64,000 bases of DNA, taken from a virus. The DNA lies in IMG/VR virus record IMGVR_UViG_3300027836_000007, positions 32,001-96,000 of that record. The stretch is one strand, 5' to 3'. A program made the position numbers and the translations under genes. Shown here piece after piece: positions 1,459 to 64,000 of this stretch; position 1 is the stretch's first letter, and each line of letters starts with the position of its first letter. Under the pieces are notes generated by a model. That model was not told the origin of the DNA and searched no databases. It saw nothing but the letters and a program-made list of their open reading frames with translations.

Positions 1459-1545
1459 AATAGTTCTCCTTTAATATGCCTTTATGTGCTTTTGTTTGCC
1501 TAATATTTGTTTATGATCTACATAAACAAAAAGCGCATACATGTT

Positions 1546-1574: not shown

Positions 1575-1610
1575 GAGAAATCTTGCTTTAAATGTGAGTA
1601 TTTTACTCGA

Positions 1611-18342: not shown

Positions 18343-18773
18343 CAGATAGAATAGTATGTAGCGGAGCATTGTTCTACGCCAAGTCTACACGAAGATTTCT
18401 ACTGTTACAAAAAGCTCATGGTAAACATACTGGCACGTGGGGATTAGTTGGGGGTACAAACTTACAACACGAAAATCCATGGCAAGGTCTACAGCGTGAA
18501 GTCCAAGAAGAAATTGGATCTATGCCCGCAGTAATTAAAACAATTCCATTAGAAACATTTGTGTCTAACGATAAAATCTTTAATTTTCACACATACTTGT
18601 GTGTAATACAAGATGAATTTATTCCTGTATTAAGCGATGAACATTGTGCGTGGGCATGGTCAACTATTGATTATGCGCCAAAGCCCTTACATCAGGGACT
18701 GCGTAACAGCTTTTCAAACAAAACAATTCGTACTAAATTACAAACTGTATTTGATATAGTGGAGTTAATCTAA
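18324..18773 (+). CDS. Nudix hydrolase
   Basis: Nudix box GGTNLQHENPWQGLQREVQEEIG, plus EH..WAW and LH.G. Confidence 0.9.
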   Translation: METRALTDRIVCSGALFYAKSTRRFLLLQKAHGKHTGTWGLVGGTNLQHENPWQGLQREVQEEIGSMPAVIKTIPLETFVSNDKIFNFHTYLCVIQDEFIPVLSDEHCAWAWSTIDYAPKPLHQGLRNSFSNKTIRTKLQTVFDIVELI

Positions 18774-21117: not shown

Positions 21118-21734
21118 AAGAAAATTACAAAATTTTACGAAATTTCTTTAAAAAAGAAAAATGTTTAGAGATGACTACTAAACTTAGTAATTTATTACAA
21201 CGAGGAATTTATAGAAATCCAGATTCGTTATGTACTTTGAGTCCTGCGTTCTACGGAATATTTAATGACGAGATGATAGAAATTCAAAAAAATATCGAAA
21301 CACTAGTAGGAGAAGAATTATATCCATGCTATTCGTATGCTAGAATATATCAAAAACACGATATCCTCCCGCCACATACTGACAGACCAAGTTGTGAAAT
21401 TAGCCTTACCGTAACTTTAAATTATGAAAAACATACATGGCCAATTTGGTTGATAGATCAGGGACAAGTTACAAGTATTGAACTAGATATTGGGGATATG
21501 TTACTGTATAAAGGAACAGAAGTCATGCATTTTAGACACCCCATGCAAGGACAAGAGTTTCAATATCAAGTGTTTTTTCACTACGTTAAAAAACAAGGCA
21601 ATTACGCAAATTACAAATACGACTTGAATACAAGTTTACTATCAAACTTAGAAGCAGAAGAACAAAATTTCCCAGAATGGACTGATGATCAGCCGGACCG
21701 GATCATAAATAGAGACGATAAGGATACAAATTAA
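21114..21734 (+). CDS. Fe(II)/2OG oxygenase (HTDRPSCEIS type)
   Basis: LYP.YSYARIY...D.L.PHTDRPSCEISLT, GDMLLYKG....H.R, QVF.HYV. Confidence 0.85.
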   Translation: MKENYKILRNFFKKEKCLEMTTKLSNLLQRGIYRNPDSLCTLSPAFYGIFNDEMIEIQKNIETLVGEELYPCYSYARIYQKHDILPPHTDRPSCEISLTVTLNYEKHTWPIWLIDQGQVTSIELDIGDMLLYKGTEVMHFRHPMQGQEFQYQVFFHYVKKQGNYANYKYDLNTSLLSNLEAEEQNFPEWTDDQPDRIINRDDKDTN

Positions 21735-21735
21735 T

Positions 21736-22341
21736 ATGAATACCAAACCATCTGAAATATTTTATTTAGAAGATGTACTAAGACAAAATACGTTTGACAA
21801 CATTGTTGCCGAATTAAAAAAACCAATCTGGCAATACGGTAGAGTTACTAATCCCGATCTGTGGGACGAGGATACAACAGTATTTTGGCAAGCCGATTTA
21901 AGTCTAAATACCCTAGTAGGGGAACAAGCATTTTATGAAATTATTGATAAATTGAACCAAATTGACTCTACTACACAGAATTACCAGTTTAAACTTTATA
22001 GTGCTATTGCTGGCGGTAAAACATTCGGGTTAGATGGCGGAATTCATACTGATAAAGACGTAGAATTTAACAACATGGGCGACGGATTCATGACCTTTTG
22101 TTTTTTCCCAAACAGAGAATGGAATCCAGAATGGGGCGGCGAGTTTCAGTTCTTTGATCAGGAAGGAAATATAATTGCAACATACTATCCTAAGCCAAAC
22201 ACATGTTTAGTATTTGATAGTAACATTCCGCACAGAGGGCTTGCACCTAATAGAGATTGTAAAAAGCTCAGGATGTACCTTTCTTTCAAAACATTTGTGA
22301 GTAAAAAATGGTACTTGGACCAAAATAACAATGATTCTTAA
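21736..22341 (+). CDS. Fe(II)/2OG oxygenase, prolyl-hydroxylase-like
   Basis: IHTD, W.PEWGGE, PN..LVFDS.IPHRG.AP, R. Confidence 0.85.
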   Translation: MNTKPSEIFYLEDVLRQNTFDNIVAELKKPIWQYGRVTNPDLWDEDTTVFWQADLSLNTLVGEQAFYEIIDKLNQIDSTTQNYQFKLYSAIAGGKTFGLDGGIHTDKDVEFNNMGDGFMTFCFFPNREWNPEWGGEFQFFDQEGNIIATYYPKPNTCLVFDSNIPHRGLAPNRDCKKLRMYLSFKTFVSKKWYLDQNNNDS

Positions 22342-23050
22342 TTTATTTTCATTACCGATATATAAAGTTAATATTTTAGATCAAATTGATACTGGTAATC
22401 TTGAAGAAAAGTTACAGTCTGAATTTGCTCGATCTTCTTCTGACCCAAGTGGTCTAGAAAAAAATGGCGGAGTAAGCACTTACGATACTAATTGTAATTT
22501 ACATTTGGAAGAATATACAAAAACAATATCAAATATTGTGTTACAACATGCTAGATTATATTGGAAAGTATTAGATGTTGATCCTAGATTAGAACCTAGG
22601 ATCGATCAGTGCTGGTCAAATATACATTATAATAAAAGCATTACTATAGAACATTCTCATAGTTTATATCCTATTGTTGCTACCCTATATGTAAAATCTG
22701 AAAAACATTCAGGAGATTTAGTAATGATAAATCCAATGGAGTATGGGCTAACTCATATTCCGTACGGAGTTGCTATTGAAAATAAAACAGAAACTTCTAT
22801 TAAAGTTTCGACGGGAGATTTAGTATTGTTTCCAGGGTGGATTAGACATAAGACAACAGAAAATCTTTCAGATCAATCTAGAATTGTATTAAGTTTTAAT
22901 ATTCATTACCAAGGAACATATCTTGCGTCAAACAGTGACTATCTTGTGGATCATACGGTACATACTAGCGAAATTGATCAGTTACAGAATAAAATTCTAA
23001 AATTAGAATTTATCATAGATCATATGCAACGGAGTTTAAAAAATGATTAA
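22331..23050 (+). CDS. Fe(II)/2OG oxygenase, TIGR02466-like (HxH type), with C-terminal coiled-coil tail
   Basis: WSN, HSH, GDLV..NP, GDLVLFPGW..H, RIVLSFN, then a heptad-like tail. Confidence 0.85.
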   Translation: MILNLFSLPIYKVNILDQIDTGNLEEKLQSEFARSSSDPSGLEKNGGVSTYDTNCNLHLEEYTKTISNIVLQHARLYWKVLDVDPRLEPRIDQCWSNIHYNKSITIEHSHSLYPIVATLYVKSEKHSGDLVMINPMEYGLTHIPYGVAIENKTETSIKVSTGDLVLFPGWIRHKTTENLSDQSRIVLSFNIHYQGTYLASNSDYLVDHTVHTSEIDQLQNKILKLEFIIDHMQRSLKND

Positions 23051-23267
23051 AAAACCAAGAAGAATGCATTTAAATGAAAAAATACTACGTGTTCCTACGA
23101 AACTTTATGAAGAGCGACTAGCAATTTGTAAAACTTGTTACGCCTTCGATGCCGCTGGAGAAACAGGAGGTACTTGTAAAATTATAAATGTGCCTGTTAC
23201 AGCTAAATGCGCTTTAAAATCTGGTTCTTGTCCGATGGGATTCTGGTCGTCTAATTATGACAATTAA
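23043..23267 (+). CDS. Small Cys-rich protein (R..IC..C...C...KC..CP.G.W; DUF6171-like)
   Basis: 74 aa with 5 Cys and a GGAG RBS. Overlaps both neighbours. Confidence 0.7.
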   Translation: MIKKPRRMHLNEKILRVPTKLYEERLAICKTCYAFDAAGETGGTCKIINVPVTAKCALKSGSCPMGFWSSNYDN

Positions 23268-23958
23268 AATTGGTTACTGTCCTTGGTTTGAAAAAAATAA
23301 TCGAACTACAAATACTGCTCTTAACTATTATGGCTGGGCAGATTTGGCTTACTTTGATTTAGAACCGCTAGATACTTGGGAAAATTCAACAGCAAGGTAT
23401 CATCAGTGTCCTGCGTTTGTAAAATATGTAAAAAATACATTTGTATTAAGAAATACAGTAGATTTAGTATTGCACTGGGACAAATATAACCAAGTAGTAA
23501 GCACAAATTTACCCAAGGATGCGGCCGATGCGTTGGTAAGAACTCACTGGGGAGATTTTGATACTGACAAAGATCGCCCAATTGTTGCAATTAGTAATAG
23601 TTTTGTGTTTGTTGCAGATCAGCCAGTCTATGTCGAATTCTTACCTCCGTTTAATCATATTGATCATTCGTGGAGATTAATTCCCGGAATGTTTAATATC
23701 TTTTCGTGGCAACGGCCTGTAGTAACTACTATTGAAATGTTAACAGACGAAGTTATTCTAAAACGTGGTCAGCCCATGGCTTATATTAGATTTAGATCTG
23801 ACAACCCAAGTGATAAGTTTGTTTTGAAAAAAATAGAACGTACTGAACAACTAGAACATGCTGTAAACAGTTGTCTCACATTAAAACAATATATGCCAAA
23901 ATTAAGTTGGAAAATACATAACGCTATTAATAAGTTAAGGCCTAAAAAATGGCTGTGA
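23257..23958 (+). CDS. Hypothetical protein with CPAF...G.P motifs (DUF6065-like, possible dUTPase-like beta fold)
   Basis: HQCPAF..Y..N.F, IPG.FNI..W.RP, KRGQPMAYIRF. The family call is tentative. Confidence 0.55.
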   Translation: MTIKIGYCPWFEKNNRTTNTALNYYGWADLAYFDLEPLDTWENSTARYHQCPAFVKYVKNTFVLRNTVDLVLHWDKYNQVVSTNLPKDAADALVRTHWGDFDTDKDRPIVAISNSFVFVADQPVYVEFLPPFNHIDHSWRLIPGMFNIFSWQRPVVTTIEMLTDEVILKRGQPMAYIRFRSDNPSDKFVLKKIERTEQLEHAVNSCLTLKQYMPKLSWKIHNAINKLRPKKWL

Positions 23959-25418
23959 AGAAAGTAGCGATTCTAGGCGGGGGCACTTCTGGCTGGCTAA
24001 CAGCAATATTTTTTAAAAAAGTTTGGCCGGCACTAGAAATTACAGTAATTGAAGATCCAAAACATCCTCCAATTATAGCAGGAGAAAGTTGCACAGCACC
24101 CTTTGTCGACTTGTTAGATTTTTTAAATATTGACGTAAACGACTGGATTAAAAAAGTAGATGCTTTTCCTAAATTAGGGGGAAAGTTTGAAGGCTGGGGC
24201 CCCAATAATTCTGATTTTGTACAACCGTTATTTTCTTCTTATAAGAATCGGTGGGATTATAAAAATCCAGAGTTTGGCAAAGATAATGTTCTACTCAAAG
24301 GATTACTTGCTACAGGTTTACCCTTACATAAGATTACGGTGTCTGGTCATTTATTAGAAAATAATATAACACCTTTTACTTCTACCGGATTCGTAACTAG
24401 ACCAATGTATCATTTTGACAGCAGAAAAAATGCAGAATATTTTAAAAATATCGGCAAATCATTAAACATTAATCTAATTTTATCAAAATATCAGTCTTGT
24501 AAAATATCCGATAATGGAATTGAAAGTTTAACTTTAGAAGATCAAGAAGTTTGTGCAGATTTTTATATCGATTGTAGTGGATTTAATCAGTTGTTATTAA
24601 AAAAAGCATTAGGAGTTGAATTTAAAAATTTTTCTAAATATTTCCCAGCAACTAGTGTAATAGCTTGGTGGGACGAATCAGATTTAAAACCATATTCAAG
24701 AATGATTGCCATGGATTATGGCTGGCGATTTAATATAGACTTACGGTCTAGAAGTGGAAACGGTTATGTCTACGACGGGTCTTTAATTTCATCAGAACAA
24801 GCACAACAAGAAGTTGAAAGAAAACTTAATAAATCCGTTAATTTAGTTGCCAAAGCATCTTGGCAAGCTGAAATGGCTATTGAACCTTGGCAGAAAAATG
24901 TAATAGCAATAGGACTTAGTTCAGGATTTTTAGAACCGTTAGGATCAGGTGGTCATACTATGATTGCCTTGACTTTACAACTACTTTCAGAATTTTGGAA
25001 CCCAGAAAAAGAAACACACGGCCATGCAACTACGCTATTAAATTCTCGATATAAAGACATTGTTGATGATACTGTAGATTTTATTTCATTACACTATCGA
25101 AATAACAGAAGTGATACTGAATTTTGGAGGAAACATTTATCGGAAGAAACTGTTCCTCAATCGTTAAAACTAAAAATTGAACAACTTAAATCTGGAAACT
25201 TTTACGATATTGGGGTTGCATACTCTTTAGAAAATTATGCCGTAGTATTACAAGCATACGAGTTAATTGATAAATCATTGTTAGCTAATATTATTCGTTA
25301 CAAAAATGAAAAGTATTTAGATCAATGTATAGAAGAATATAACTTACTAAACAATCAAGCAAAACTAATAATCAAAGACTGTATTCCTACAACAGAATGG
25401 AAAAAATTATATGATTAA
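23949..25418 (+). CDS. Flavin-dependent tryptophan-halogenase-family protein 1 (divergent active-site motifs)
   Basis: GGGTSG FAD motif, GES, PKLG lysine, YHFD, DCSGF, GNGYVY, GF.EPL, HY..R.DT.FW. WxWxIP appears as WRFNID and EPLE as EPLG. Confidence 0.85.
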   Translation: MAVKKVAILGGGTSGWLTAIFFKKVWPALEITVIEDPKHPPIIAGESCTAPFVDLLDFLNIDVNDWIKKVDAFPKLGGKFEGWGPNNSDFVQPLFSSYKNRWDYKNPEFGKDNVLLKGLLATGLPLHKITVSGHLLENNITPFTSTGFVTRPMYHFDSRKNAEYFKNIGKSLNINLILSKYQSCKISDNGIESLTLEDQEVCADFYIDCSGFNQLLLKKALGVEFKNFSKYFPATSVIAWWDESDLKPYSRMIAMDYGWRFNIDLRSRSGNGYVYDGSLISSEQAQQEVERKLNKSVNLVAKASWQAEMAIEPWQKNVIAIGLSSGFLEPLGSGGHTMIALTLQLLSEFWNPEKETHGHATTLLNSRYKDIVDDTVDFISLHYRNNRSDTEFWRKHLSEETVPQSLKLKIEQLKSGNFYDIGVAYSLENYAVVLQAYELIDKSLLANIIRYKNEKYLDQCIEEYNLLNNQAKLIIKDCIPTTEWKKLYD

Positions 25419-26895
25419 CAATTTAATAATTCTCGGCGGCGGAACTAGTGGACTAGTTAACGCAATTATATTAAAGTCTATCTACCAAAAGCTCAACATT
25501 ACTATAGTAAAGTCCTCTGATGTTGGCATCATCGGCGTAGGTGAAGGTTCAACTGAACACTGGGCTCGTTTTATGCAAGTTGCAGGAATCTCCGTACACG
25601 AACTGTTAAAAGAAACAGATGCAACGTTTAAATCTGGTATAAAATTTATCAATTGGAATGGAGACGATGACTATTATTTCCATAGTGTTCACAGTCAATT
25701 TTTAACAGAAAGTTACAATGGTTCTAATAATATATATTTAAACATGATTGCAGGAGGAAAAACTCACCACGATATTATTCCTGATAACATTCATAAGTCA
25801 GTTCATTACGAACCTTTAGAAGGAACAGTCAATCAATTTCATTTCAATACCATGAAACTTAATGATTATCTCATTAAGCAATGTTTAGTTAGAGATATAA
25901 AAATTATTGACGATACAGTAGACGATGTTATTTTAGATGACACGGGCCATGTTTCAAAACTAATAGGCAAGTTAGGTGAATATTCGGCAGATTTTTTTAT
26001 TGATTGTAGCGGTTTTAAACGTGTTATATCTTCTAAATTAGGTGCAAAGTGGGTAGACTGTTCAGACTATCTACCAATGAATTCAGCATTTGCATTCCCT
26101 ACAGAAAAAATGGAAGATATTCCTTCACACACCCTTAGCACTGCAATGAGTTCAGGATGGATGTGGCGAATACCAACTAATGATAGATTTGGAAATGGTT
26201 ATGTATATTGTGATAAATTTATTACAGACGAACAAGCTATTGCAGAAGCACAATCTGTATTTCAAAAGCCTATCAACATTGCAAAGACATTTAAATTCAC
26301 TGCTGGATATGTAGATAAATTTTGGATTAAAAATTGTGTGGCTGTTGGGCTGGCTGGGAGTTTTGTTGAACCGTTAGAAGCCAGTAGTATAGGAACTTCT
26401 ATTCAACAGGCATTTGGCATCGCCAACTCTTTAATAAATTACGAGGACGGTGATCAATCATTGATTGACAAATACAATTATGATTTTGAAAGCGTGGCTA
26501 AAAATATTATTGATTTTGTTCAACTACATTATATAACTAAAAGAGAAGATTCTGCTTTTTGGAAAAATTGTAAAAATTTAAAATTAACTGAATTTAATCA
26601 ACAAACATTAGAGCATTTTAAAAAATACGGTCCTAATACAACTTTCTTTAGTAAGCCATATATGCTTTTTAGGGAAGTAAATTGGTTATTAGTCATGCAC
26701 GGCTTAAAAATGCTCGACATAGAAAGTATAAAGAATATGATGTCACAACAAAATGACGATATATTGTTTTCAACAAACGAACTTCAAAAAGATTTTAGTA
26801 AATTTGTTGAAAAACAAACTATGATTACTCATAGAGAATGTTTAGAAATTTTAAAATCTAGAAACTCCGTTCATGTTATCAGTATGGAACAGTGA
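25411..26895 (+). CDS. Flavin-dependent tryptophan-halogenase-family protein 2
   Basis: GGGTSG, GVGEGST, ATFKSGI, DCSGF, WMWRIP, FVEPLEASS, HY...RED.AFW. Confidence 0.92.
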   Translation: MINNLIILGGGTSGLVNAIILKSIYQKLNITIVKSSDVGIIGVGEGSTEHWARFMQVAGISVHELLKETDATFKSGIKFINWNGDDDYYFHSVHSQFLTESYNGSNNIYLNMIAGGKTHHDIIPDNIHKSVHYEPLEGTVNQFHFNTMKLNDYLIKQCLVRDIKIIDDTVDDVILDDTGHVSKLIGKLGEYSADFFIDCSGFKRVISSKLGAKWVDCSDYLPMNSAFAFPTEKMEDIPSHTLSTAMSSGWMWRIPTNDRFGNGYVYCDKFITDEQAIAEAQSVFQKPINIAKTFKFTAGYVDKFWIKNCVAVGLAGSFVEPLEASSIGTSIQQAFGIANSLINYEDGDQSLIDKYNYDFESVAKNIIDFVQLHYITKREDSAFWKNCKNLKLTEFNQQTLEHFKKYGPNTTFFSKPYMLFREVNWLLVMHGLKMLDIESIKNMMSQQNDDILFSTNELQKDFSKFVEKQTMITHRECLEILKSRNSVHVISMEQ

Positions 26896-27527
26896 TGGCT
26901 ATAGAGCAAAAGTCTTTTCCAAATTACGGGTATTCAATGTCAGTTTTGCCCGACGACGTGTTATGTATAATTAAAGAAGAAATTAATAATTTACAAACTA
27001 ACAGTAAAATTTATAAAAATCTAGCAGGGCATTTAGAATCGCAACATTATCTAACAGAATCTCGAAACACATTATCTCCAATTATTTTAGAAATGGCGGC
27101 TGAGTATCTGCTTTCTTGGAATTTTAAAAACGAAGTACTTAGAAATAATCCAAAGGCAGATGTTATCTCTTTTAAATTAGATGATATTTGGGTAAATTTA
27201 CAGAAAAAGACAGAGTATAATCCGTTACACGACCATTCTGGAGTTTTTAGTTTTGTTGCTTGGATCAACATACCCTACAATTTAGAAACAGAAATGAAAC
27301 TGCCGAATGTCGAATCTTCAAATAACCCGTTAGCAACAACTTTTAACTTTGTCTATACTAATGTGTTTGGAGAGATTATTGCCTTGCCATTTTTTGCTGA
27401 GAAAAAACACGAAGGAACTATCATTTTTTTCCCGGCAAAGTTAAAACATTTAGTTTATCCATTTTTAACTTCAGAAGAGCATAGAATAACTATTTCAGGA
27501 AACGTGTCCCTTAACACCGCTGTGTGA
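26895..27527 (+). CDS. Fe(II)/2OG oxygenase (HxH type)
   Basis: LAGHL, WVN.QK..EYNPLHDHSGVFSFV.W..IPY, FFPA.L.H.VYPF, RITISGN. Confidence 0.85.
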   Translation: MAIEQKSFPNYGYSMSVLPDDVLCIIKEEINNLQTNSKIYKNLAGHLESQHYLTESRNTLSPIILEMAAEYLLSWNFKNEVLRNNPKADVISFKLDDIWVNLQKKTEYNPLHDHSGVFSFVAWINIPYNLETEMKLPNVESSNNPLATTFNFVYTNVFGEIIALPFFAEKKHEGTIIFFPAKLKHLVYPFLTSEEHRITISGNVSLNTAV

Positions 27528-27555
27528 TAATTACATATATCACATTAGGAGACAT

Positions 27556-29145
27556 ATGAGTAACGTGAATAAAATAGTGATAGTCGGTGGTGGTAGTGCT
27601 GGTTGGATGAGCGCAGCCACTCTGATTAAACATTTTCCAAATAAAGAAATTTATGTTATAGAAAGCCCCAATGTTCCCACTGTCGGTGTTGGTGAAAGCA
27701 CTATTGGGCAAATAAACGAATGGCTGTACGATCTTGATATCAAGGATGATGACTGGATGAAACAATGTGATGCCAGTTATAAGATGAGCATCAAGTTTAC
27801 TAATTTCTATAAAGAAGATGCGGGTGCCTTTCACTATCCATTTGGTGTTCCAGTAGTTGAAGCCAAATTTTTTCCGTACGGAGTCAATGACTGGTATGTG
27901 AGGAAATCTGTTCATCCTGAGATACCGGTTTCTAATTTTGCGGACACATATTTCCCCGCAATGACATTAATTAATAAAAATAAAATTACCGACAATAAAA
28001 ACAATGAAATACCAGGCTGGAACTTTGATCGAGATGTGGCCTATCATTTTGATGCGGCAAAGTTCGGTGCTTGGCTGAGAGATTCGTATGCTGTTCCTAA
28101 AGGGGTAACACATATACCTGCTGAAGTAACATCTATACAAACAAACAGCGAAGGTGTTGAACATCTTGTATTAGATAATGGCGATAAAGTTACTGCTGAT
28201 TTATTTTTAGACTGCACAGGATTTAAATCTATTATTTTAGATAAGACGATGAAGGTTCCTTTTGAAAGTTATAGTGATTTACTACCCAATAACAGTGCAT
28301 GGGCTACACGTATCCCATTTCAAGATAAAGAAAAAGAATTAGAACCGTTTACTAACTGTACTGCTATAGGTAATGGTTGGGTTTGGAATATTCCGCTATG
28401 GAGTCGAATTGGAACTGGATATGTTTACAGTGACGAATATATTTCAGACCAAGATGCATTAGAAGAATTTAAAGAATATTTACAAAAAGAAAGAGAAGTG
28501 CCAATTCCAAAATCTGTCATTGACTCTTTAGAATTTAAAAATATTAAAATGCGTGTAGGAATACACAAAGAAATTTATCACAAAAATGTCTGTGGTATTG
28601 GGTTAGCTGCAGGGTTCATTGAACCATTAGAATCTAATGGTTTGTATACTGTTCACGAATTTTTATTAAAATTAGTTGCAATACTTAATAGAAATTCTGT
28701 AAGTCAATTTGATAAAACTGCCTTTAATGAAGGATGTAGAGGAGATTTTAGAGCTTTTGCTGAATTCGTAGCCTTACACTATGCTATGAGTCACAGGGAC
28801 CAAACTCCTTATTGGCAGGCTGTGCAACATCGTGTATTTCCAAAAACTATGCCGTTGGGCGTATATGCTACATCTGGAATTGACAGTATAATACATAGAA
28901 AGTTTGTAAGCCATTTATATGATATGGACATGGGCGGCACGTTGATGATAGCAACTGGCATGAACTTGTTTCCGTTTGACAGTAGTCTACTAAAAAGAAC
29001 GCTGTTTAGAAATTCTAATGCAGAATATCTGACCTACTTACAAGATGTTTGTTGGCATAAATGGGATGCTGACTTAGATCAAAGAAATGAATTTGCTGAT
29101 TCTGCTCCAACACTATATCAATATTTAAAAAGCAAATATGATTAA
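27556..29145 (+). CDS. Flavin-dependent tryptophan-halogenase-family protein 3 (canonical motifs)
   Basis: GGGSAGW, GVGEST, ASYKMSI, AYHFDA, DCTGF, WVWNIP, RIGTGYVYS, FIEPLESNG. AGGAG RBS. Confidence 0.95.
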   Translation: MSNVNKIVIVGGGSAGWMSAATLIKHFPNKEIYVIESPNVPTVGVGESTIGQINEWLYDLDIKDDDWMKQCDASYKMSIKFTNFYKEDAGAFHYPFGVPVVEAKFFPYGVNDWYVRKSVHPEIPVSNFADTYFPAMTLINKNKITDNKNNEIPGWNFDRDVAYHFDAAKFGAWLRDSYAVPKGVTHIPAEVTSIQTNSEGVEHLVLDNGDKVTADLFLDCTGFKSIILDKTMKVPFESYSDLLPNNSAWATRIPFQDKEKELEPFTNCTAIGNGWVWNIPLWSRIGTGYVYSDEYISDQDALEEFKEYLQKEREVPIPKSVIDSLEFKNIKMRVGIHKEIYHKNVCGIGLAAGFIEPLESNGLYTVHEFLLKLVAILNRNSVSQFDKTAFNEGCRGDFRAFAEFVALHYAMSHRDQTPYWQAVQHRVFPKTMPLGVYATSGIDSIIHRKFVSHLYDMDMGGTLMIATGMNLFPFDSSLLKRTLFRNSNAEYLTYLQDVCWHKWDADLDQRNEFADSAPTLYQYLKSKYD

Positions 29146-29899
29146 CTTTATTAAAGAGCTGTTTTCTAAAAAGAAAGAAATTATTACTTTTAGTTGCAAG
29201 GACTGGGCTATACGAAAATATTCACCGGTTGAATTAGGGGAGCAAAAATTACCTCAGGAATATTTAGATTTACCTGTGGGGAAAATTTGCCCGTTTGAAA
29301 GAAAAAATCAAAGTTATCAACTTTCAGCAAGACAATGTCCGTCGATTAATTCTTTTTTAAAGTATGGATATGTTATCTCTGCTTGGTGCGATATAGAAAT
29401 TAGTTTTGAAGACGATCATGTGTACATCAAATATAGTAATTTAGATTATAATCACGATGTACACACAGAAAATCAATATCAAAAAATTATAGGTGATCAA
29501 TTTGATGTTAGACTAATTATAAAAATAAACAACCCGTGGCATATAAAAACCTTAGATGGATATAGTTGTTTCTGGATGCCAATTTACTATACAAATAAGA
29601 ATTATCAAGCTATTCCTGCTATAGTGGATACTGATTTGATGTTAAATGACTTACCAATTAATCTAGCATTTTTTGAAAAAAAATATACTTTGATAAAAAT
29701 GGGAGAACCCTTAGTTAAAGTTATTCCTTTTCGTCGAGAGCCAATTGACGCTGTAAGCAAAAAATACGACTCTGCTGATGAAAATAGATTTTTAAATATC
29801 CTGGGATTAAATGGACTTAGTAGATATAATTGGCGAGGGTTTATTACTGCAAAAAATAAGTTTAGTTTGGATAAAAAAGACTTAGACATTGAATCATGA
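29138..29899 (+). CDS. Hypothetical protein with CP...G.P motifs (DUF6065-like)
   Basis: QCPSI..F...GY...W.D, KI.NPW.I.T..GYS, IVDTD, GEPL...IPFRRE. Confidence 0.55.
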   Translation: MINFIKELFSKKKEIITFSCKDWAIRKYSPVELGEQKLPQEYLDLPVGKICPFERKNQSYQLSARQCPSINSFLKYGYVISAWCDIEISFEDDHVYIKYSNLDYNHDVHTENQYQKIIGDQFDVRLIIKINNPWHIKTLDGYSCFWMPIYYTNKNYQAIPAIVDTDLMLNDLPINLAFFEKKYTLIKMGEPLVKVIPFRREPIDAVSKKYDSADENRFLNILGLNGLSRYNWRGFITAKNKFSLDKKDLDIES

Positions 29900-30483
29900 T
29901 CAACTTGGAACCTATCAATCTTTGGCCTAGTTTAATACATAAATCTGTTTACCCTGGAGATTTGACAAATATTTCTAGTAAATTTTTGACACTCTTTAAT
30001 GAAAATTCAAATCATAATTTAGAAAAAAACGGTGGCAAGTCTACATACAGTACTGTAAACAACCTAATTACCGACCCAGTGTGCGGCAAACTAAAAGAAT
30101 GGTTAATTCAACAAAGTAAACTAGTTTGGGATTTATCTAATTTTGTTGATCGTCCAAGACGTGTGCATAGAAGTTGGGTAAACTTACATCCTCCAGGGGC
30201 ATGGACTGATGAACACGACCATGCAATGTGTCATCAAAACATTGTTGTTTATTTAAAACAACCTGAATTAGGTGGTAACATAATGTTTAAAGATCCTCTA
30301 CAATACACATTTTCTGGATTTCCAAAAAATAATAAAAATGACTGGACAACATTGGAAGTTAAACAGAACGATGTAGTTTTTTTTCCTGGATTTTTACATC
30401 ATAAAACAGAAATTAACTCTAGTCAAGAAGATAGAATGGTTATGACTCTAACTATATCCGTGGATATATTTGCTGATGAATAA
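29896..30483 (+). CDS. Fe(II)/2OG oxygenase, TIGR02466-like (HxH type)
   Basis: SWVN, HDH, GGNI.FKDP, FFPG.L.H.T..N, R.V. Confidence 0.85.
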   Translation: MINLEPINLWPSLIHKSVYPGDLTNISSKFLTLFNENSNHNLEKNGGKSTYSTVNNLITDPVCGKLKEWLIQQSKLVWDLSNFVDRPRRVHRSWVNLHPPGAWTDEHDHAMCHQNIVVYLKQPELGGNIMFKDPLQYTFSGFPKNNKNDWTTLEVKQNDVVFFPGFLHHKTEINSSQEDRMVMTLTISVDIFADE

Positions 30484-31066
30484 TTATAGAAACGTAACAT
30501 TATTAGGAAAAATTCCACTACTCACTAGTCAGTGGTCAGAATTCGATAACTATAAAAAAGACATCGTTGATCTTTGTTTAAAACTTGAAGTTCCTAATAC
30601 GATAGAATCTAATATAGCAGTTCATGCGAAATCAGATTTGTGGGAATCGTCTTTCGATTTTTTAGAAAAACAAACAGATATTAATAATTTAAAATTATGG
30701 CTGATACAGGAATCTACTGAATTAATCAATAATTTTAACAATAGTAATTACAGAACAGTTATAACAGAAAGTTGGGCACATGTTACTAGGGCAAGTGGAT
30801 ATCATAAACCTCATTATCACTGTGGCTCAACTTGGTCCGGCATTTTTTATGTTGCTGGTGAAACTAATAAAGGAGGAAGTAATAATTGGTACTTGCCTTA
30901 TTACGTAGAAAGACAGCCTGGGTTAGAATTTGCAGATAGTATGTACACTGTTAATTGCCAGCCCGGAACATTAGTGTTATTTCCCAGTATGCTACTTCAT
31001 GATGCTGATGTGTATCAAGGAACCCAACCGAGGATAGTTATTTCTTTTAATTCCATATGCTTATAA
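30470..31066 (+). CDS. Fe(II)/2OG oxygenase, TIGR02466-like (HxH type)
   Basis: ESW.HVT...GYH..HYH..STWSGIFY, PG.LVLFPS.L.H....Y.G...RIVISFN. Confidence 0.88.
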   Translation: MLMNNYRNVTLLGKIPLLTSQWSEFDNYKKDIVDLCLKLEVPNTIESNIAVHAKSDLWESSFDFLEKQTDINNLKLWLIQESTELINNFNNSNYRTVITESWAHVTRASGYHKPHYHCGSTWSGIFYVAGETNKGGSNNWYLPYYVERQPGLEFADSMYTVNCQPGTLVLFPSMLLHDADVYQGTQPRIVISFNSICL

Positions 31067-31653
31067 TAGACGACGTTATTGTGTTAGACGATATTGTTCC
31101 TAAACAATATCAAGATTTGATAGAAACTCAAATGTTAGGTGACAATATACATTGGCACTACATGAGAGACATAACCTTTGATGTTGAAAAACTCAATGAG
31201 TTAAAGGTTACTGTTGCTAAACCTGCATTTGCTCACAAATTTTACGACAGGACTGCTGGGATTATTAGCCCTGGATATGGATTAGTATTGCCCATTGTGT
31301 ACAATGCTTGCGAAAAAATTAAGTTTCATGTAAACGAAGTTATTGCCGCAAGGAGTTTTTTAACTATTCCCCTTCCAAATCTAGAAAGCGCCCTAGATCA
31401 TCCGCATGTTGATAGAGAAGTTTCTCACATAGTAGTTCTATATTATGTTACAGATTCTGACGGAGATACTGTGATATATGACAAAACTTTTAGAGATGTC
31501 TCTCCTGATCATCTTAGAAAAGAAGATTTACAAATTTTTAAAAGTGTTACGCCTAAAAAGGGAAGAGCCATCGTATTTGATGGCTCTCGATATCACACTA
31601 GCACTAGGCCAACTACTGGACACAGATGTGTAGTTAACTTTGGTGTATGGTAA
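31057..31653 (+). CDS. Fe(II)/2OG oxygenase (cyanophage-type HxD family)
   Basis: PHVD, LYYV.DSDGDT, PKKGR...FDG..YHTS..P, R.VVNF. Confidence 0.88.
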   Translation: MLIIDDVIVLDDIVPKQYQDLIETQMLGDNIHWHYMRDITFDVEKLNELKVTVAKPAFAHKFYDRTAGIISPGYGLVLPIVYNACEKIKFHVNEVIAARSFLTIPLPNLESALDHPHVDREVSHIVVLYYVTDSDGDTVIYDKTFRDVSPDHLRKEDLQIFKSVTPKKGRAIVFDGSRYHTSTRPTTGHRCVVNFGVW

Positions 31654-39400: not shown

Positions 39401-42400
39401 CAAATCTGCCTTGGCCGTAAGCTACACTAGCCCATGTTGTAGTAGCAGCCGCAGTCATTGTAACTGCTACTTTATCATATCCAGGGCCCGTGTAAGATAA
39501 TGCTGGTTCAATAACATAAGCAGATGTAGCATCTAATATTGCATTAACTGTTTGTCCCGGTACTACATGATCCCATCCTGCTTCGTACACTGGAACACTC
39601 ACTGTACCAGTTAATGTTGTACTTGCTAAGTTTTGACTTACACTTACTCTCCAAGTTGATCCAGCACCACTGCCTGATATGTTAGAAGAAATATAAGTGT
39701 TAGGTAATATTGATCCGCCAGTTAAACGCATTCCTGGATAAATTACGCCAGAGCTTAATGTTCCTACAGTTAATACAGATCCAACAATAAGCGAACTTGG
39801 CATTACTGCTGGTGTTGCACTGGTTGCGGTTAATGTAATATCAGTACCAGCAAGAGCATTTACTAATGTTGTAGCAAGTCTAAATGTTGTACTAGTAAAA
39901 CTTGTTACACTTACAAAGTATACTGTAGGTAAATATCCACCATCAAGCAGGCTTAACCCTGCGATTGCCGCGCCCATGTATATTGGTTGTCCTACATACA
40001 TAGTAGCTGTACTAGCCACAGTAAATACTGTAGTATTATTTGTTGTAATTGTTAATGTTGCAAAACTTGGACGGATTATATTGGTAAATTTGTCTGCTTG
40101 TCTATATCCAATAATATTTGCAAACTGGCCTACTCCAGTACCGCCTATAATTTGAATTCTCATTCCAATATATGCTGAACTTAACTGAATGTCAGAGTTA
40201 GCAATATTTACGCTACCAACTGCACCAACCTGTGCCACGTTTGCCGCTGTTAGATAATTAGATCCTCCAATTCCTTGACCGTTATCTAAGTCAACTAATC
40301 GTGTTTCAAATACTGCTGAGTCACGGAATTCATCATGTATCGGTACAATGTTGTAACCAGAACCGTTAAGAGTTGGCAAGGCATTTGTATAATGATTACC
40401 TGCATTTTGGAATTCTAGTCGTAGAATTTTATCAGTACTGTCAGTTACCACGTTTGTAACGTATGCTGGATTACCACGGTTATTTAATCTGCCAACAATT
40501 GGAGCTTCGTAACTGTCGATACCTTCAGCAATAACACCGTATGTACCGTATGAACTGTTACCGTTTGTAGCACGGATACGTCCACCGTATTCTGCCATGT
40601 AGCCTGCGTATGAGTAATATGCAAACACAGATACAAGTTCTGTTAATGCTCCACTACCAGTACACCATACACCGAAACCGTCACTGATAATAGTTGTGTA
40701 GTCGTTAGCAACAATAGATTTGTTACCACCGTTGTGTAATGCAGCGTCAATTTTCATGCCTGAACAACCTGCACCAAACAATGTTAAGTTTTGTGTGTAA
40801 GGTGAACGGAAACTAATCCATGCATTAGCATCGTTTGGTCCAAATCCTGCGTCAAGACTTGAGTACGATCCTGCTGTTGGACGTCTAGTTCCTAATGCAT
40901 TAGGTAATGACATTGCTCCGGTCATACCGTTTAATGTCATATTTCTTAAACCAGAACCGTTACGTAGATGGAACAAATCGGTTGTTTGTGCGCCGGCTTG
41001 TGCTGTATTATATAATCGTGCAGAACGAGTTGAAGCATAATTTCCTGTTATACCTAAATCATAAACTAAACCATCGATATGATATACTGCATCTCGGATG
41101 GCTTGTGCTGTACGGATATAATAAACTACTGACATTGATCCAGTAGCACCTGTTAACATTTTAACAACTTGAATTCCTTTTCCGGGAGGAGTTGTTGTAA
41201 TAGTAAATGTTGATGCAGACGGTGTAGACAACACCCAATATACAGTGCCTATTTCTATTGCAGTGTCAAAAGCTACAGCTGATAAACTAGGTGGAATAAT
41301 TGGAGTATCAAACACCACTGGATCACCTACATCAAAACAATGCGGTGCTGAGCAAGTAATTGTTCCGTTACTATTAGTAGTTGTTACGGTCCCGCCAAAT
41401 ACTGAGCGCACATATTCAACTGCTTCGGTTGCCAAGAATGTTTTATTAGCACGAATTAGTTCAGCACCATTGATTGTAGTCAATGTGTTGTTATAACCAG
41501 TTGCTTTTTCGTATGTTCCAAACGCATTATTCCATGGTTGAATTGTACCATTAGTAATTTTATCATTAATACCTTGATTTGTTGGCATACCTGCGGTGCA
41601 AGTTGCTGTTAAACTTCCAACAGTATTAGTAATTGCAAACGCTGTTCCACTCTTATATGATTCAGTAACTGTAATAGTTGTGCCAGCTGCAGGATATGTT
41701 CCAGCAGTTACACTATTAATCCAGTATTGTGCGCCATTTACTAAACCACCAGCTGCATTAAAGTTTGCTGTTAGTGCTAATCCTGTAGCATCAGTTAATG
41801 TTAAAGCTGTTCCACCAAAAGTTGTGGCGATAGTAATTGCGCTAGCACTGGCTGTGTTAACATAATAAACTTGATTAGAAATAATACTAGATTGTGTTGT
41901 AGTAGCTTGCGGAGTAAATCCTGTAAACCAAACTTTTTGTCCAACTACTACACCCAATGACGCTACTGTGTCGCCAAGTGTGATTGAACTGCTAGAAATT
42001 GTAGTTGCAGTTGTAGTAATATTTGCTGGTAAACCAGTGAATGTAATTGGCATATCAACTAACATGCCTTTATTACTAGAAACAGTAATTAAGTTTGTGC
42101 TTGTAGTTACAGTTGTTACAGGAATAGTTGGTCCACTTGCTGTAATATCTGTATTTAAACCAAGGCCGCCGTAAATACCGTAAACCACTGCTGTCATTGC
42201 ACCAGTTGCTGTCTGAGTGATAGAAAATACAGGTCCAAGATAAGTTGTGCTTACTGTAAACTGTGTTGAACTCAGCACTTGTTTAATATAATACGTTCCG
42301 GCTTCTAAACTATTAATTTTTGGTCCAGTAATAGTAATAACTAGTCCAGGAACGAAACCACTTGTAGTACCTGCGGTAAGAACATCATTATATGTATTTC

Positions 42401-60800: not shown

Positions 60801-61922
60801 ACTAGTTACGCTTCCGCGAGTTAGTACTGTTATATTTCTAATATACGGACTACGAGTAGATACTGTAAAAGATGGAGCAAAACGGAATCCATATCCTGTA
60901 TTGTTTCCGCTGTTAAATCTAAATCCAGTTACTGTTAGTTCTTCAACAGTAGTTTCTCCATTCATTAAGAACGCATCTTTATCAACGGTTCCAACTGTAG
61001 GCTGAATAGTTACGGCACGTAGTCCGGCGCCTTTAACAGTAACGCCAACTGGTACAGTTAATGGAAATATTTCAGAATACGTACCTGGATAAATGTAAAC
61101 AGTGTCGCCCGGTGATGTCAAACTTAACGCATACTTAACTGTTAATACTGGGTCGTGTTCATGCTCACCTGAATTGGTGTCGCTGCCATTTTCAGCAACA
61201 TAATAGATATTGCCTTGAGTAGATACTACGTTGATACTACTTACTGTAATTGTATCTGCTGTAAAATCTGTAGCAAATATCTCTTTAGCGTAAGTGTTGC
61301 GCCATCTTTTACCAAAATTACCTGGAGTAATTTCAACTGCTGGATTACTACCTAGGTCGTATGTTTCAGTAATATCTGGAATAATATTACTAGTAATGTC
61401 AGCATTAAATGTAATGCTGTCAGTGTCAGCGTCACCTAGTGTTAAGTTGCCGTCTGCTGTAATAGTTCCGGTTGCGTGTAAATTGCCGTTAACTAACACA
61501 TTGCTGTTGATGTTTACTTCGCCGATGCCGGTAGTATTGATTTCTAAGTCACTATCAGTTACAGTTGTTTCAATAATGTTTGACGATATTCTTAAATTGT
61601 CGTCGACTAAAATTTTAGCTTGATAGATAACAGCATTAGCGCCAGCGGGCTCTAAGCTAATTATTGAATTTGAACTTGATATTTTGTTACCAAATATTGT
61701 AATCTCAGCTATGTCAGCTTGATTGGTAACTTCTAAATCTGTGGTACGTGTTGTACCGTTGATTCCTAATTGGTAGTCGTCGAGGGCTGTTGGGGTTGTC
61801 TTTACGCCGACTTTACCATTAATAACATCTAAATATAAAAGGTCGGTCTCAAAAGCCAGATCAACCCCGTCACGAAGCAGATTTGCTTTTAAGAGCGGAC
61901 CGGTAATACGACCAACAGCCAT
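57852..61922 (-). CDS. Large tail fibre/appendage protein with beta-helix lead-in and LamG-like domain
   Basis: Likely start MAVGRITG at 61922 (AGGAG RBS). YYVAENGSD.N.G, LamG-like DFTFEFF..P, repeated I..N.I......D..L...G.G shaft units, G.IRYN/IRFN repeats. Confidence 0.78.
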   Translation of the reverse strand: MAVGRITGPLLKANLLRDGVDLAFETDLLYLDVINGKVGVKTTPTALDDYQLGINGTTRTTDLEVTNQADIAEITIFGNKISSSNSIISLEPAGANAVIYQAKILVDDNLRISSNIIETTVTDSDLEINTTGIGEVNINSNVLVNGNLHATGTITADGNLTLGDADTDSITFNADITSNIIPDITETYDLGSNPAVEITPGNFGKRWRNTYAKEIFATDFTADTITVSSINVVSTQGNIYYVAENGSDTNSGEHEHDPVLTVKYALSLTSPGDTVYIYPGTYSEIFPLTVPVGVTVKGAGLRAVTIQPTVGTVDKDAFLMNGETTVEELTVTGFRFNSGNNTGYGFRFAPSFTVSTRSPYIRNITVLTRGSVTSAGDPYGFDQNDAGKGALIDGSVANILSREAAMLFHSCTFFTPNQETIVATNGVRIEWLNSFTYFADKGLYAYSSASGFAGAGLTRLRIETRTGTWAVGNTVNYYDTDGTTVLGTGTIASIDGDYVNLTGRELGFETITDRVGKTVYAQGDAKLSIAQKKFGTASLVLDGVGDYITISSQPDFEYGTGDFTFEFFWRPTALGTQQILLDCRTASNDTALYLEMNTAGNIRLFVSNAYRITSSVACSAGAFNHIALFRVGGVTKLAVNGTLTPTTWADTTNYPARPVRMGASWTDGAPSTGYIDEVRVVKGVAKYTTSVTVPTAPLAGDLSTVLLLHFNGANNSTTFVDDGVTLQDLRTSALGTASLIQFADYSDFGAEIRAIGSANVYGTYGAYGDGPGVIGYLISQNFAYVGTGKLTTNDPNDRIAANEVVELNGARIYRTSVDNEGNFSVGDAFFVNQKTGEVLFNGELLTITTPAGVTFTDGINTTIISADGIDTGNMRISGNTIESLTGDVNVTAASGTINLQNNTFITGNLDVTGDITLGGNITIGDASTDTINFVGGISSNLVPATTATYNLGQGGVTPLRWNNVFLSRAEIDGLVIDSNTIQTTVGNDNLTLQANGSGIISIPSNNVQIDQNLTVTTDLTVTTGTTYLKNTSITGTVTQTGDINQTGNFTTSGNTEVTGNITGTGYLRLPNIEISGSTITTRTAGTDLQLSANGTGNVVIEGLKVEDNVIKSTVTNSDIVLTPQGTGIVTIDSNQSLKLPVGDNSQRPGTPVNGMIRYNNQIERYEGYNNGLWLTMSGVADSDGNTYITAELTPGANDNTLRFYADGSLMATIDSTKLYAERLQTSNLNIESNTISSISTDSDINLTPTGTGSVRVGNLSIKNNTITNVVSGAITEFSQTGTGYVKVAGTYGIVIPSGTDSTRPGVTEAGMIRFNTEQEFVEVYNGSIWTGVSGVGGGINFNDATNIAIEYVLTFG

Positions 61923-62031
61923 TTGCGCTCCTGAATACACCGAGTTTCACGGATAACCACTTTTTCAGCTTTCGCTCTATGCGGGTTTACCACAGGTTAA
62001 TCATACAGTGGATTGGTCGTCCCTTGTAATC
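61923..62031 (-). ncRNA. Candidate structured 5' leader RNA
   Basis: Non-coding ~110 nt between a GCTAAATA box (62037-62044) and the ATG at 61922. Contains several nested stems, a GAAA tetraloop hairpin and a ccg-UGAAACU-cgg hairpin. Confidence 0.45.
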
Positions 62032-62056
62032 ATTAGTATTTAGCTGTTTTGGTTTT

Positions 62057-64000
62057 TTACCCTAGGATCAGGGTCCAAAGTTCAAGAACGTCAAGAACAT
62101 CTTCAGCGGAAACTGTTGCATTATTTCCTACAGCACTGATCCATTGGGTGCCATTGAAGATTTCTAGAACTCCGGCTGCTTGTGTATTATATCGAAGTTC
62201 TCCAAGATCAGGAGTTCCTCGTCTACTGCTCTCATTTCCTGTAGGAACTACAAGGCCGCCGCTACCTGAAAATTTAATATAACCAGTGCCAGTCGTATTC
62301 AAATCTAACGAAGTGTTTAATGAATTTACAATATAATTTTGGCTGATTGGTAATCCGTTTAACACTGTATTTCCAACGCCGTCTGGAGAGAATGTTAAAT
62401 CATTTCCAGAAACTTTATTTGATAACGTATTCCCTGTCAGTCGAACATTGCCTGCTTCAAAAATATCAGAATTAAGAGATGTGCTGTTTAATGTAGTTTT
62501 AACAACATTATTAATTCCAAAATAGATAGTATTATCAGTTGCTCCGGTTGTTATATATGTGTTTCTATCTGAATCGTATAAGCCATTAAAGCTAATCAAC
62601 CCAGTACCAGCACCACCTTCGTATAAATTTGTTAAATTGTTATAACGTATTTCGCCTGCTGCAATAGTTCTTGTAGTTGTATTTCCAACTGGGATTTTTG
62701 CCGCATTTGTTCCTGTAATTGTTACACTTCCAGTACCGTTAGGTTGAAGTATAACACTTCGCTGTGTATCGGTTGTTGGACTAGCCCACACGTTACTAAT
62801 AGTAGATCCGTCAATTTTTAAACGTTGATCGAGAACAACAGCGCCAGTTGTTGCGCCAGTTAATGTTAAATCACTGTCAGTTGCCGTAACACTGATTTCA
62901 CTATTTTGCAGTTTGATATCTGGAACCGCAAAATACGAACTGCCTGTAATTTCGATATTAGTATTAGCGAACAGTCCAGTAATATATGCGTTACTGCTAC
63001 CAATTTGATCCCAATCGCCTGTTTGAGTTATTGTTCCTGTTAGCTCAGTATCTTGTAAACTGCTAACACCGTTTACAGTTAATGTATTGCCAACTATTAA
63101 ATCGTTAGCAATCGTCACATCCGTATTTGTAACTTGTACTTGCCCAGTGCCGGCAGCTGAAAGAACTAGATTTGTATCAGTAGTTAAAGTCGAAACAGTA
63201 TTAGATGATAGTTGTGTAACATTGTCAACATTTAATAAAGTTGCAAATAGTGTGTTCCATCGTGTAGTATCTGTACCTAGAGAGAACGGGCCGCCAACAT
63301 CGTCTGGAACTAAATCTTGTGTTAAGTTAGAAAATACTGTGATAGTATCTGTTGATTGATTGCCAAGAAATAAATTGCCATCAACATTAATATTTGAGGA
63401 AACTGTAGTATTTCCTGTAACGAATACATTGGTATTTAGGTAAGTCGATCCTGAGCTGGCTAGAAAGTTAACTGGGCCTAATAAGCTATCAATATTATTA
63501 TCGTATATTCTAATATTTCCAGTTTGAACTATGTTTCTATCAACATACGACGGGCTAGTTCCACCTTCTACACTAATAGCTCCTAATGGATTAAATGTAA
63601 TTGACTGTGCGTTAAACGCAATCGCGCCAGTTTCCTGATTTACATAAAAAACATCACCTACTCTAAAGTCGCCTTTATGATCAACACTTTCATAATAAAT
63701 TCGGCCATTGTTAGATTCTACTACTTCAAATGCTTGTATTGCCTGTGATGGATCATTAGTGCTAACTATTCCTGAACCAATATAACCAAAATTGTGGCCA
63801 ATCAAGTAACCTAAAGTGTTTGCGCCGTCTGCTACTGCGCCGTAAGTTCCGTATACGTTTGCGCTGTTAATACTACGAATTTCTGCCCCATAGCGAGTTA
63901 TTGTACCAATGCCTGGGGCAGAAAAAATAGGAATACCAACACCTGCTACCAATGACGTTGTGACATATATTCTCCACATGTTAGTATTAACAGGATCTTC
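62057..64000 (-). CDS. Large tail fibre/appendage protein, C-terminal part (start lies beyond the window)
   Basis: Paralogous to 57852-61922 (YGAEIRSI.SANVYGTYGA..DG, G.IYY.SVD..G.F.VGD.F.VNQ.TG, GE.RYN repeats). The frame stays open to the window edge. Confidence 0.78.
   Translation of the reverse strand, partial: EDPVNTNMWRIYVTTSLVAGVGIPIFSAPGIGTITRYGAEIRSINSANVYGTYGAVADGANTLGYLIGHNFGYIGSGIVSTNDPSQAIQAFEVVESNNGRIYYESVDHKGDFRVGDVFYVNQETGAIAFNAQSITFNPLGAISVEGGTSPSYVDRNIVQTGNIRIYDNNIDSLLGPVNFLASSGSTYLNTNVFVTGNTTVSSNINVDGNLFLGNQSTDTITVFSNLTQDLVPDDVGGPFSLGTDTTRWNTLFATLLNVDNVTQLSSNTVSTLTTDTNLVLSAAGTGQVQVTNTDVTIANDLIVGNTLTVNGVSSLQDTELTGTITQTGDWDQIGSSNAYITGLFANTNIEITGSSYFAVPDIKLQNSEISVTATDSDLTLTGATTGAVVLDQRLKIDGSTISNVWASPTTDTQRSVILQPNGTGSVTITGTNAAKIPVGNTTTRTIAAGEIRYNNLTNLYEGGAGTGLISFNGLYDSDRNTYITTGATDNTIYFGINNVVKTTLNSTSLNSDIFEAGNVRLTGNTLSNKVSGNDLTFSPDGVGNTVLNGLPISQNYIVNSLNTSLDLNTTGTGYIKFSGSGGLVVPTGNESSRRGTPDLGELRYNTQAAGVLEIFNGTQWISAVGNNATVSAEDVLDVLELWTLILG

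Follow-up and report, generated by a model that had tools for sequence, protein, structure and literature searches.

In the leader of the MS2 maturation gene, an upstream sequence pairs with the Shine-Dalgarno (SD) sequence and encloses a cloverleaf, and output is confined to a brief window before this structure closes (PMC4615214). The gene 32 operator of phages T4, T2 and RB69 is a 5' H-type pseudoknot bound by the gene's own single-stranded DNA-binding product, with an unstructured A+U-rich tract over the ribosome binding site (RBS) (PMC3014915). Here we describe the leader of a baseplate/fibre-type virion gene in an uncultured jumbo phage. This leader is conserved in related phages, contains the helices P1, S1, S2 and P3, has a hairpin loop complementary to codons 3-5 of the ORF, with a constraint on those codons, and is associated with one gene family. 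It is a candidate new cis-regulatory RNA, as a first-pass annotation of this DNA had suggested: judged from sequence, a real, widely conserved, structured mRNA leader that lies outside Rfam.

Like the MS2 maturation leader, the new leader has a multi-helix domain whose closure would come from an upstream sequence base-pairing with the initiation region, ahead of the gene for a low-copy virion protein. Unlike it, the new leader belongs to the late transcript of a dsDNA jumbo phage rather than to an RNA genome, encloses an H-type pseudoknot and a T-loop-like hairpin rather than a cloverleaf without a pseudoknot, and pairs a hairpin loop with codons 3-5 while the SD, which is paired in MS2, stays free; there is no sequence similarity. 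The MS2 long-distance interaction would, by analogy, be the closest functional precedent, and the two are not homologous. Both the leader and the gene 32 operator occur in phages of the T4 type, have an H-type pseudoknot close to the 5' end and lie tens of nucleotides upstream of the start, and that operator is tied to translational repression and mRNA stability, as we propose here. The leader differs in having P3 and about 8 nucleotides in place of the A+U-rich UUAA(A) tract, in preceding a baseplate/fibre-type virion gene, and in its loop-ORF pairing. The gene 32 pseudoknot operator may thus be regarded as the closest relative in kind within T4-type phages, again not homologous, and the leader does not have the features that define either the MS2 or the gene 32 leader.

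In the ribosomal-protein leaders of Escherichia coli rpsO/S15 and the alpha operon/S4 (RF00140), a hairpin loop pairs at or after the start codon, and a protein can lock the pseudoknot. As in these leaders, the initiation region of our gene would become part of a pseudoknot; unlike ours, those leaders mimic rRNA sites and precede ribosomal-protein genes, and there is no homology. A small H-type pseudoknot with an A-rich third loop, near-invariant junction nucleotides and a site just upstream of the RBS also recall the preQ1-I/II, SAM-II/V, fluoride and guanidine-III riboswitches, although in these the pseudoknot usually includes the SD and the genes belong to one pathway; our leader shares neither trait. 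The kind of element, a translational operator with a long-range pseudoknot, is already known, and the leader itself is a new variant.

Results and discussion

Genomic context of the leader

The window analysed, a stretch of 64,000 nucleotides, spans bases 32001-96000 of an IMG/VR virus record that is 106.8 kb long and estimated to be 29% complete. It carries a T4-type terminase, sheath and tube, and the nearest terminases are those of PA5oct-like and other Rak2-type jumbo phages (53% identity); the source is an uncultured, T4-like jumbo phage. The leader and its neighbouring features are listed in Table 1. The downstream gene, P0002, matches the PHROGs 'baseplate wedge subunit' (E 8e-197) and also Pfam Laminin_G_3, a PDB homologue of it was not found, and on its 3' side lie two small ORFs followed by genes for proteins of 3094 and 3761 aa. 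The first-pass annotation had remarked that gaps elsewhere in the structural region are short, and this is borne out: across the 44 gene junctions of the window the median gap is a few nucleotides, most are below 25 nucleotides or overlapping, and only five exceed 100.

P0001 and P0002 (57852-63979) share a domain of about 150 aa (GSANVYGTYGA...VGD.F.VNQ.TG). An N-terminal G-R-I-S-G-P-L-L motif is common to several fibre paralogues in related contigs, which suggests one attachment module. Adjoining the tail-fibre module on the plus strand (23949-26895 and 18773-31653) are overlapping genes that include Trp-halogenase-family proteins (Pfam PF04820, E 2e-76).

Table 1. Features of the leader and its flanking genes, in window coordinates. 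The last four rows are pairings listed in the first-pass annotation.
Feature	Position	Strand	Remarks
Upstream virion gene P0001	62057..63979	minus	640 aa; neighbour and paralogue of P0002
Gap with leader		minus	134 nt, between two paralogous virion genes
GCTAAATA box	62037-62044	minus	
TAAATA box	62037..62042	minus	T4-type late-promoter -10 element; preceded by C62043
Predicted +1	62031	minus	5'-most paired base of P1; derived from the geometry of T4 late promoters (box -13 to -6)
Hairpin P1	61999..62031	minus	Lower stem 62028-62031 with 61999-62002
P1 upper stem	62020-62027 with 62005-62012	minus	2x2 internal loop in window copy
P1 apical loop	62013..62019	minus	CGACCAA; (N)GACCAA in most leaders
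S1 5' strand	61992..61994	minus	UGU; pairs with 61980-61982
Loop L1	61988..61991	minus	GGUA, near-invariant, unpaired: G 133/133, G 129/133, U 130/133, A 129/133
S2 5' strand	61983..61987	minus	AACC + C61983; pairs with 61955-61958 and 61960, U61959 bulged
S1 3' strand	61980..61982	minus	GCA; partner of 61992-61994
Loop L3	61961..61979	minus	Carries optional AGC-GAAA-GCU hairpin, 61967-61976
S2 3' strand	61955..61960	minus	G-u-GGUU; partner of 61983-61987
Hairpin P3	61939..61953	minus	CCG-UGAAACU-CGG; flanked by non-canonical U61953/U61939 pair
Shine-Dalgarno	61928..61932	minus	AGGAG, 5 nt before ATG; (A/G)GGAG conserved in alignments
Start codon	61920..61922	minus	Of the 1356-aa gene
P1-loop partner	61909..61915	minus	UUGGUCG, codons 3-5, +8 to +14
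Downstream gene P0002	57852..61922	minus	1356 aa; large baseplate-wedge/fibre-type virion protein, LamG-like domain
UACA-ag-GGA-cgaccaa-UCC-ac-UGUA	62004-62028	minus	Hairpin
CCUG/CAGG	61993-61996 with 61930-61933	minus	Outer stem
AACC(C)GC/GUGGUU	61981-61987 with 61955-61960	minus	
CCG-UGAAACU-CGG	61940-61952	minus	

Distribution of the leader

Residues 1-200 of the downstream protein, used as a query against IMG/VR, retrieved 80 loci at 49-74% identity. A gap of 115-150 nucleotides upstream of the start is kept in about 70 of these viral loci, and the gaps align well; six loci have a 28-nucleotide gap instead of the long leader. Further copies were gathered by exact-word scans with conserved stretches, and public collections were likewise scanned by exact words. 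Counts for structure refer below to 133 distinct leaders from IMG/VR phage contigs, and counts for the loop-ORF pairing to 136 distinct leader-plus-ORF sequences. The leader is conserved across more than 130 related phages, with one architecture in the 133 distinct homologous leaders; the conservation in homologous leaders on which the first-pass annotation had staked its proposal beforehand was thus found. A covariance model built from 89 leaders detects one copy per locus at 36-106 bits (89/89 and 72/98 loci); by this model the 106.8-kb record as a whole has just one, and the loci with a 28-nucleotide gap have none. The gene 3' of the leader is always of the same family, opening M-A-(V/I)-G-R-I-(S/T)-G or a near variant, and paralogues on the same contig with the G-R-I-S-G motif have short leaders.

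In the leaderless orthologues with the 28-nucleotide gap (L012, L014 and L022-L025, MA(V/L)GKISGPLLKEN genes), a TAAATA box lies 25 nucleotides before the ATG, and the short leader, with no obvious SD, contains AACGGTGAAAA, which resembles a remnant of the 5' half of P3.

In 50,697 deposited phage genomes, searched as DNA and as protein, no copy of the leader was found, and the only matches were distant ones at the domain level, to Melnitz and CRP-603 fibre genes. An exact-word scan of 185,579 prokaryote genomes gave more than 120 matches, all chance-like: 100 bacterial loci with the 16-nucleotide core word reach at most 22 bits when scored with the model, versus at least 36 bits for true leaders. 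About 60 viral matches to the same word were rejected as an unrelated coding motif, N-C-G-K-P-A-G, of marine phage proteins; in these loci, L082, L083 and L089 included, the core word sits inside a ..GGFNCGKPAGY.. coding stretch and is a decoy for word searches. Within the window, covariance model R1 also gives a weak match (13.9 bits, E 0.2) on the minus strand at 40443-40518, inside the gene for the 3761-aa protein, with CGUGGUA and a short hairpin; it is probably due to chance.

Promoter and predicted start

All elements listed in the first-pass annotation, the GCTAAATA box among them, are present on the minus strand where it placed them. The TAAATA within that box is invariant in 52 of 52 aligned leaders, and an NTAAATA box also stands 6-50 nucleotides before several other minus-strand virion gene starts in the window. 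For related jumbo phages, a late motif ATAAATA has been reported (PMC5259590). As a (T)ATAAATA-type box that recurs before virion genes, the element is classed on its sequence as a T4-type late promoter. The full T4 late consensus, TATAAATA, is rarer than expected, with one occurrence in the window versus 8.8 +/- 2.5 from shuffles, a depletion that would fit selection against stray late promoters. Transcription is predicted to start at the first base of P1. The spacing from box to P1 is constant across leaders, and in the P1-less variant, L388, the box is shifted so as to adjoin the core.

Elsewhere in the window, late leaders measure about 6-50 nucleotides. A second long one occupies a 152-nucleotide gap (1459-1610, minus strand) before the ORF at 472-1458; its CTAAATA box (about 1560-1566) runs straight into an inverted repeat rich in GC (GCGTATACA...TGTATGCGC), after which comes a T run; this arrangement, about 60 nucleotides before the SD, looks like a terminator inside a leader. 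At L324:4420-4560 (G000:C1, about 100.42-100.56 kb, minus strand), a UUCG-loop terminator 3' of the upstream gene is followed by a GCTAAATA box and then by about 80 nucleotides with GC-rich hairpins before an AAGGAG SD; this long leader, which comes after the capsid gene, was considered as a homologue and rejected, covariance model R1 finding no similarity.

Covarying helices and a predicted pseudoknot

From 5' to 3', the TAAATA box is followed by P1, an H-type pseudoknot formed by S1 and S2, the T-loop-like hairpin P3, the SD and the ATG. The first-pass annotation had cautioned that such short stems might fold by chance. For the single sequence this caution was apt, the minimum free energy being -29.8 kcal/mol versus -27.1 +/- 3.4 kcal/mol for shuffles (z -0.78; 48 of 200 shuffles as stable or more); in the homologous leaders it does not hold, for there the structure is conserved and covarying. 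Overall, 17 of 22 pairs are changed on both sides, and 92% of alignment cells are paired versus 36-51% with slid partners. Covariation is scored at 0.435, compared with 0.137 in shuffles, and none of 500 shuffles matched it. Many G-U pairs, such as the U-G of S1 (126/133), fit only the gene-sense strand, which argues for an RNA and not a DNA-level site.

Three of the pairings that had been proposed, P1, AACC/GGUU and the CCG..CGG hairpin, recur and covary across leaders. The sequence of the P1 upper stem is variable, with all eight pairs showing changes on both sides and 94% of cells paired. In S1, no mismatch occurs among the 133 leaders: the three pairs are UA (122) or AU (11), GC (133), and UG (126), CG (5) or UA (2), and the U-A/A-U swap is found in at least five different backgrounds. 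The S2 consensus is AAACC/GGUU plus one more pair across a bulged U. This last pair, C61983-G61960, surfaced in a mutual-information scan and occurs as CG98/AU29/GU3/UA2/GA1; other S2 pairs covary in the L068, L060 and L069 clades. S1 and the 60-106 pair both lay outside the model that made the alignment and are paired in 133/133 and 132/133 leaders, with two to four pair types. The (C)GC/GUG extension of S2 that had been drawn earlier fails in 35 of 133 leaders, and a C-G pair with a bulged U and a separate 3-bp stem explain the alignment better. Since S1 and S2 interleave, they are predicted to form an H-type pseudoknot.

Loop L3 is about 8 nucleotides long in 78 leaders and 20-50 nucleotides with a variable hairpin in the remainder, its flanking A/G-rich residues being conserved; the GNRA hairpin noted earlier is present here, but as an optional insertion found in about 40% of leaders. 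P3 is a 5-bp hairpin in which four of five stem pairs covary, with a T-loop-like loop of the pattern U-G-N-R-A-N-N closed by G-C. The pair flanking it is correlated as well (AG88/UU32/GU5/GC2), and a small subfamily has an alternative P3 (GGGA...UCCC) and an extra S2 pair. Beside these freely covarying stems stand about 25 near-invariant unpaired nucleotides, namely L1 GGUA, those of L3 and the P3 loop U-G-N-R-A.

The outer CCUG/CAGG stem, which had been thought to sequester the AGGAG RBS, is specific to the window sequence. No conserved complement of the SD was found in the leader alignments; the SD is not visibly sequestered, with P3 and about 8 nucleotides preceding it.

Pairing of the P1 loop with codons 3-5

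The CGACCAA loop of P1 is an exact complement of codons 3-5 of the downstream gene (seven Watson-Crick pairs, duplex energy -8.8 kcal/mol). Among the 136 leaders, at least 5 contiguous loop-ORF base pairs are found in 110 (81%), at least 6 in 95 (70%) and at least 7 in 50%, whereas control 21-nucleotide windows in the same genes reach at least 5, 6 and 7 bp in 7.8%, 1.6% and 0.26%. All 104 leaders whose loop reads G(A/U/G)CC have GGU as the glycine codon, and all three with GUCC (L010, and L200 and L358 with unrelated P1 stems) have GGA, giving a compensatory GUCC/GGAC in two lineages. Where the loop is lengthened to GACCAAU, it is accompanied by an AUU before the glycine codon, and where the gene has one or two extra codons, the partner is shifted by 3 or 6 nucleotides.

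Codon usage follows the same pattern. Leader-bearing genes have UUGGUC in 80%, GGU in 94% and an Arg CGN codon in 96%, compared with 5%, 65% and 30% in 37 leaderless paralogues with the same x-G-R-I-S-G motif; usage in the gene body is 41% for GGU and 51% for CGN. The third base of the Arg codon, directly beyond the duplex, is free. Synonymous codons 3-5 are, as read from these sequences, under selection to keep the loop pairing. When the leaders are simply aligned with MAFFT, pairing in the loop-ORF helix reaches 86%, versus 10-44% for slid partners, with one double change counted and shuffles not exceeded; because both sides are near-invariant, the covariation of this helix rests on three sequences in two lineages together with the codon statistics.

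The first-pass annotation had proposed a pseudoknot between the ACCA of this loop and UGGU, which occurs twice downstream. The best partner of the loop is UUGGUCG in the ORF and neither of the UGGU copies, which lie in or beside the pseudoknot stems. These two upstream copies may be transient loop partners, a role comparable to that of the metastable hairpin that delays closure in an MS2-type leader, but they show no compensation, changes in the loop being compensated in the ORF instead. Pairing of the loop with the 3' tail GGU(C/A) was also considered and rejected, as no compensation was seen.

About 19% of leaders are without good loop-ORF complementarity yet keep the core (the L035 clade, the GAUGCC-hairpin clade, L098, L100 and P1-less L388), which argues that the core has a role independent of that pairing.

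Comparison with known RNA classes

A scan against Rfam 15 at E-values up to 10, covering window positions 61000-63000 and a canonical short form of the leader (L007:2860-3020), returned nothing on the element better than E 1.7, and the Rfam search proposed in the first-pass annotation thus gave no family that matches the leader. IS128 reached 12.6 bits, versus a threshold of 80; for Alpha_RBS (RF00140), the sole match (14 bits, E 3.3) is located within the ORF. The element did not turn up in our literature searches, and the glutamine riboswitch described for Melnitz is unrelated to it. Small self-cleaving ribozymes (hammerhead, HDV-like, twister, pistol, hatchet) were rejected, none giving an Rfam match to the leader: by eye, CUGUGGU in the alignments differs from the hammerhead CUGANGA, and the P1/P2 strands that an HDV-like nested double pseudoknot requires are not conserved. 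P3 could presumably be likened to helix 45 of 16S rRNA, or L1 GGUA and the T-loop to the tRNA elbow; no covariation supports either.

A proposed mechanism and its alternatives

We put at roughly 0.6 the probability that the leader is a cis-acting translational throttle, limiting initiation on the baseplate/fibre gene through a long-range pseudoknot. The anatomy of the leader points to control of translation, as had been proposed, and the direction of the effect would be repression. The gap would be the 5' leader of a late phage mRNA whose transcription begins about 6 nucleotides past the T4-type TAAATA box, with P1 as the 5' end of the RNA. The core would then fold into the S1/S2 pseudoknot, with its optional loop-3 hairpin, and the T-loop-like P3, leaving about 8 free nucleotides before a strong SD and the start codon. 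As soon as codons 1-5 have been made, the 7-nucleotide P1 loop could pair with +8 to +14. The long-range pseudoknot closed in this way would take in the folded core together with the SD and the AUG, and would put a 6-7 bp helix where the 30S subunit threads the mRNA; initiation could then occur only before closure or while the helix breathes. A low-copy virion protein would in this way be made at a low, fixed level despite a strong late promoter. Pairing at the 5' end may additionally stabilise a very long fibre mRNA, and a factor that tunes closure may dock on the invariant core.

A simple throttle, however, needs no 25 or so invariant unpaired nucleotides. These residues, together with the retention of the core in leaders that lack the loop pairing, suggest a further partner, be it a protein, the ribosome or a ligand. 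If that partner is a protein, the leader could be a translational operator in which the pseudoknot/T-loop core docks a phage or host RNA-binding protein, for instance a ribosomal protein or a phage repressor. The contrast between invariant loops and freely covarying stems and the survival of the core where loop-ORF pairing is lost both favour such docking, operators typically go with one gene, as this leader does, and T4-type phages have operators of this sort (PMC3014915). Against this, the regulated gene encodes a virion protein that gives no sign of RNA binding in PHROGs, Pfam or PDB comparisons, and we regard the operator as possible though doubtful. A variant in which protein binding would stabilise or release the P1-loop/ORF closure, by analogy with S15 on rpsO mRNA and gp32 on its own leader, is equally tentative. 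It is unlikely, in our estimate, that the core is a sensor through which the state of the infected cell sets P1-loop clamping of the first codons, whether as a riboswitch of a new class or by binding a dedicated phage factor.

Distinctly unlikely is a riboswitch proper, with the pseudoknot core as the aptamer for a small molecule or ion and the ligand setting P1-loop closure on the ORF. The core is compact, highly conserved and covarying, its short 3-bp stem would gain from ligand stabilisation, the peripheral parts vary in length (P1, the L3 insert and the two P3 types), the adjacent pairing involves the initiation region, and no known class is matched. A riboswitch is nevertheless made less likely by the position of the element before one structural gene family only, with no metabolic link, and by its absence from bacteria, where the 100 core-word loci score far below true leaders; moreover, no conserved mutually exclusive pairing was found, changes in the loop being compensated in the ORF rather than at the alternative UGGU sites.

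That the leader is mainly an mRNA stabiliser, its paired 5' end and pseudoknot shielding the fibre-operon transcript from 5'-end-dependent RNases with the loop-ORF pairing secondary, is quite improbable. P1 starts at the predicted +1 and leaves no single-stranded 5' tail, the downstream genes encode proteins of 1356, 3094 and 3761 aa, and the T4 gene 32 leader joins a pseudoknot with unusual mRNA stability (PMC3014915). Yet a 5' hairpin would suffice for this, leaving the invariant core and the constrained codons 3-5 unexplained, as well as why one late gene alone has the element when other late leaders are so short, and P1-less L388 keeps the core. Finally, it is hardly credible that there is no functional RNA here and that the gap is a chance-folding spacer, a DNA-level site or a hidden small ORF: the short stems and the unremarkable single-sequence fold would allow it, against the compensatory changes across 133 variants, G-U pairs that fit the sense RNA strand alone, insert lengths that span all three classes modulo 3, and stops in all three sense frames in 99 of 133 leaders.

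Conclusions

Structured cis-regulatory RNAs of phages are poorly charted, and very few act on virion genes. The leader described here adds one with 133 distinct variants and four covarying helices, restricted to uncultured jumbo T4-like phages, and it has a rarely documented feature, the selection of synonymous codons 3-5 of a structural gene for pairing with a leader loop. If the core binds a factor or ligand, the leader would be a new regulatory class; if it is a sensor, dsDNA phages would have in it their first example of a sensing RNA that serves only a virion host-recognition/baseplate gene. The covariance model can be used as a marker to annotate the fibre module in metagenomic phage contigs, and the translational throttle offers a compact, testable model for how the dosage of low-copy baseplate/fibre proteins may be set from strong late promoters in large phages.
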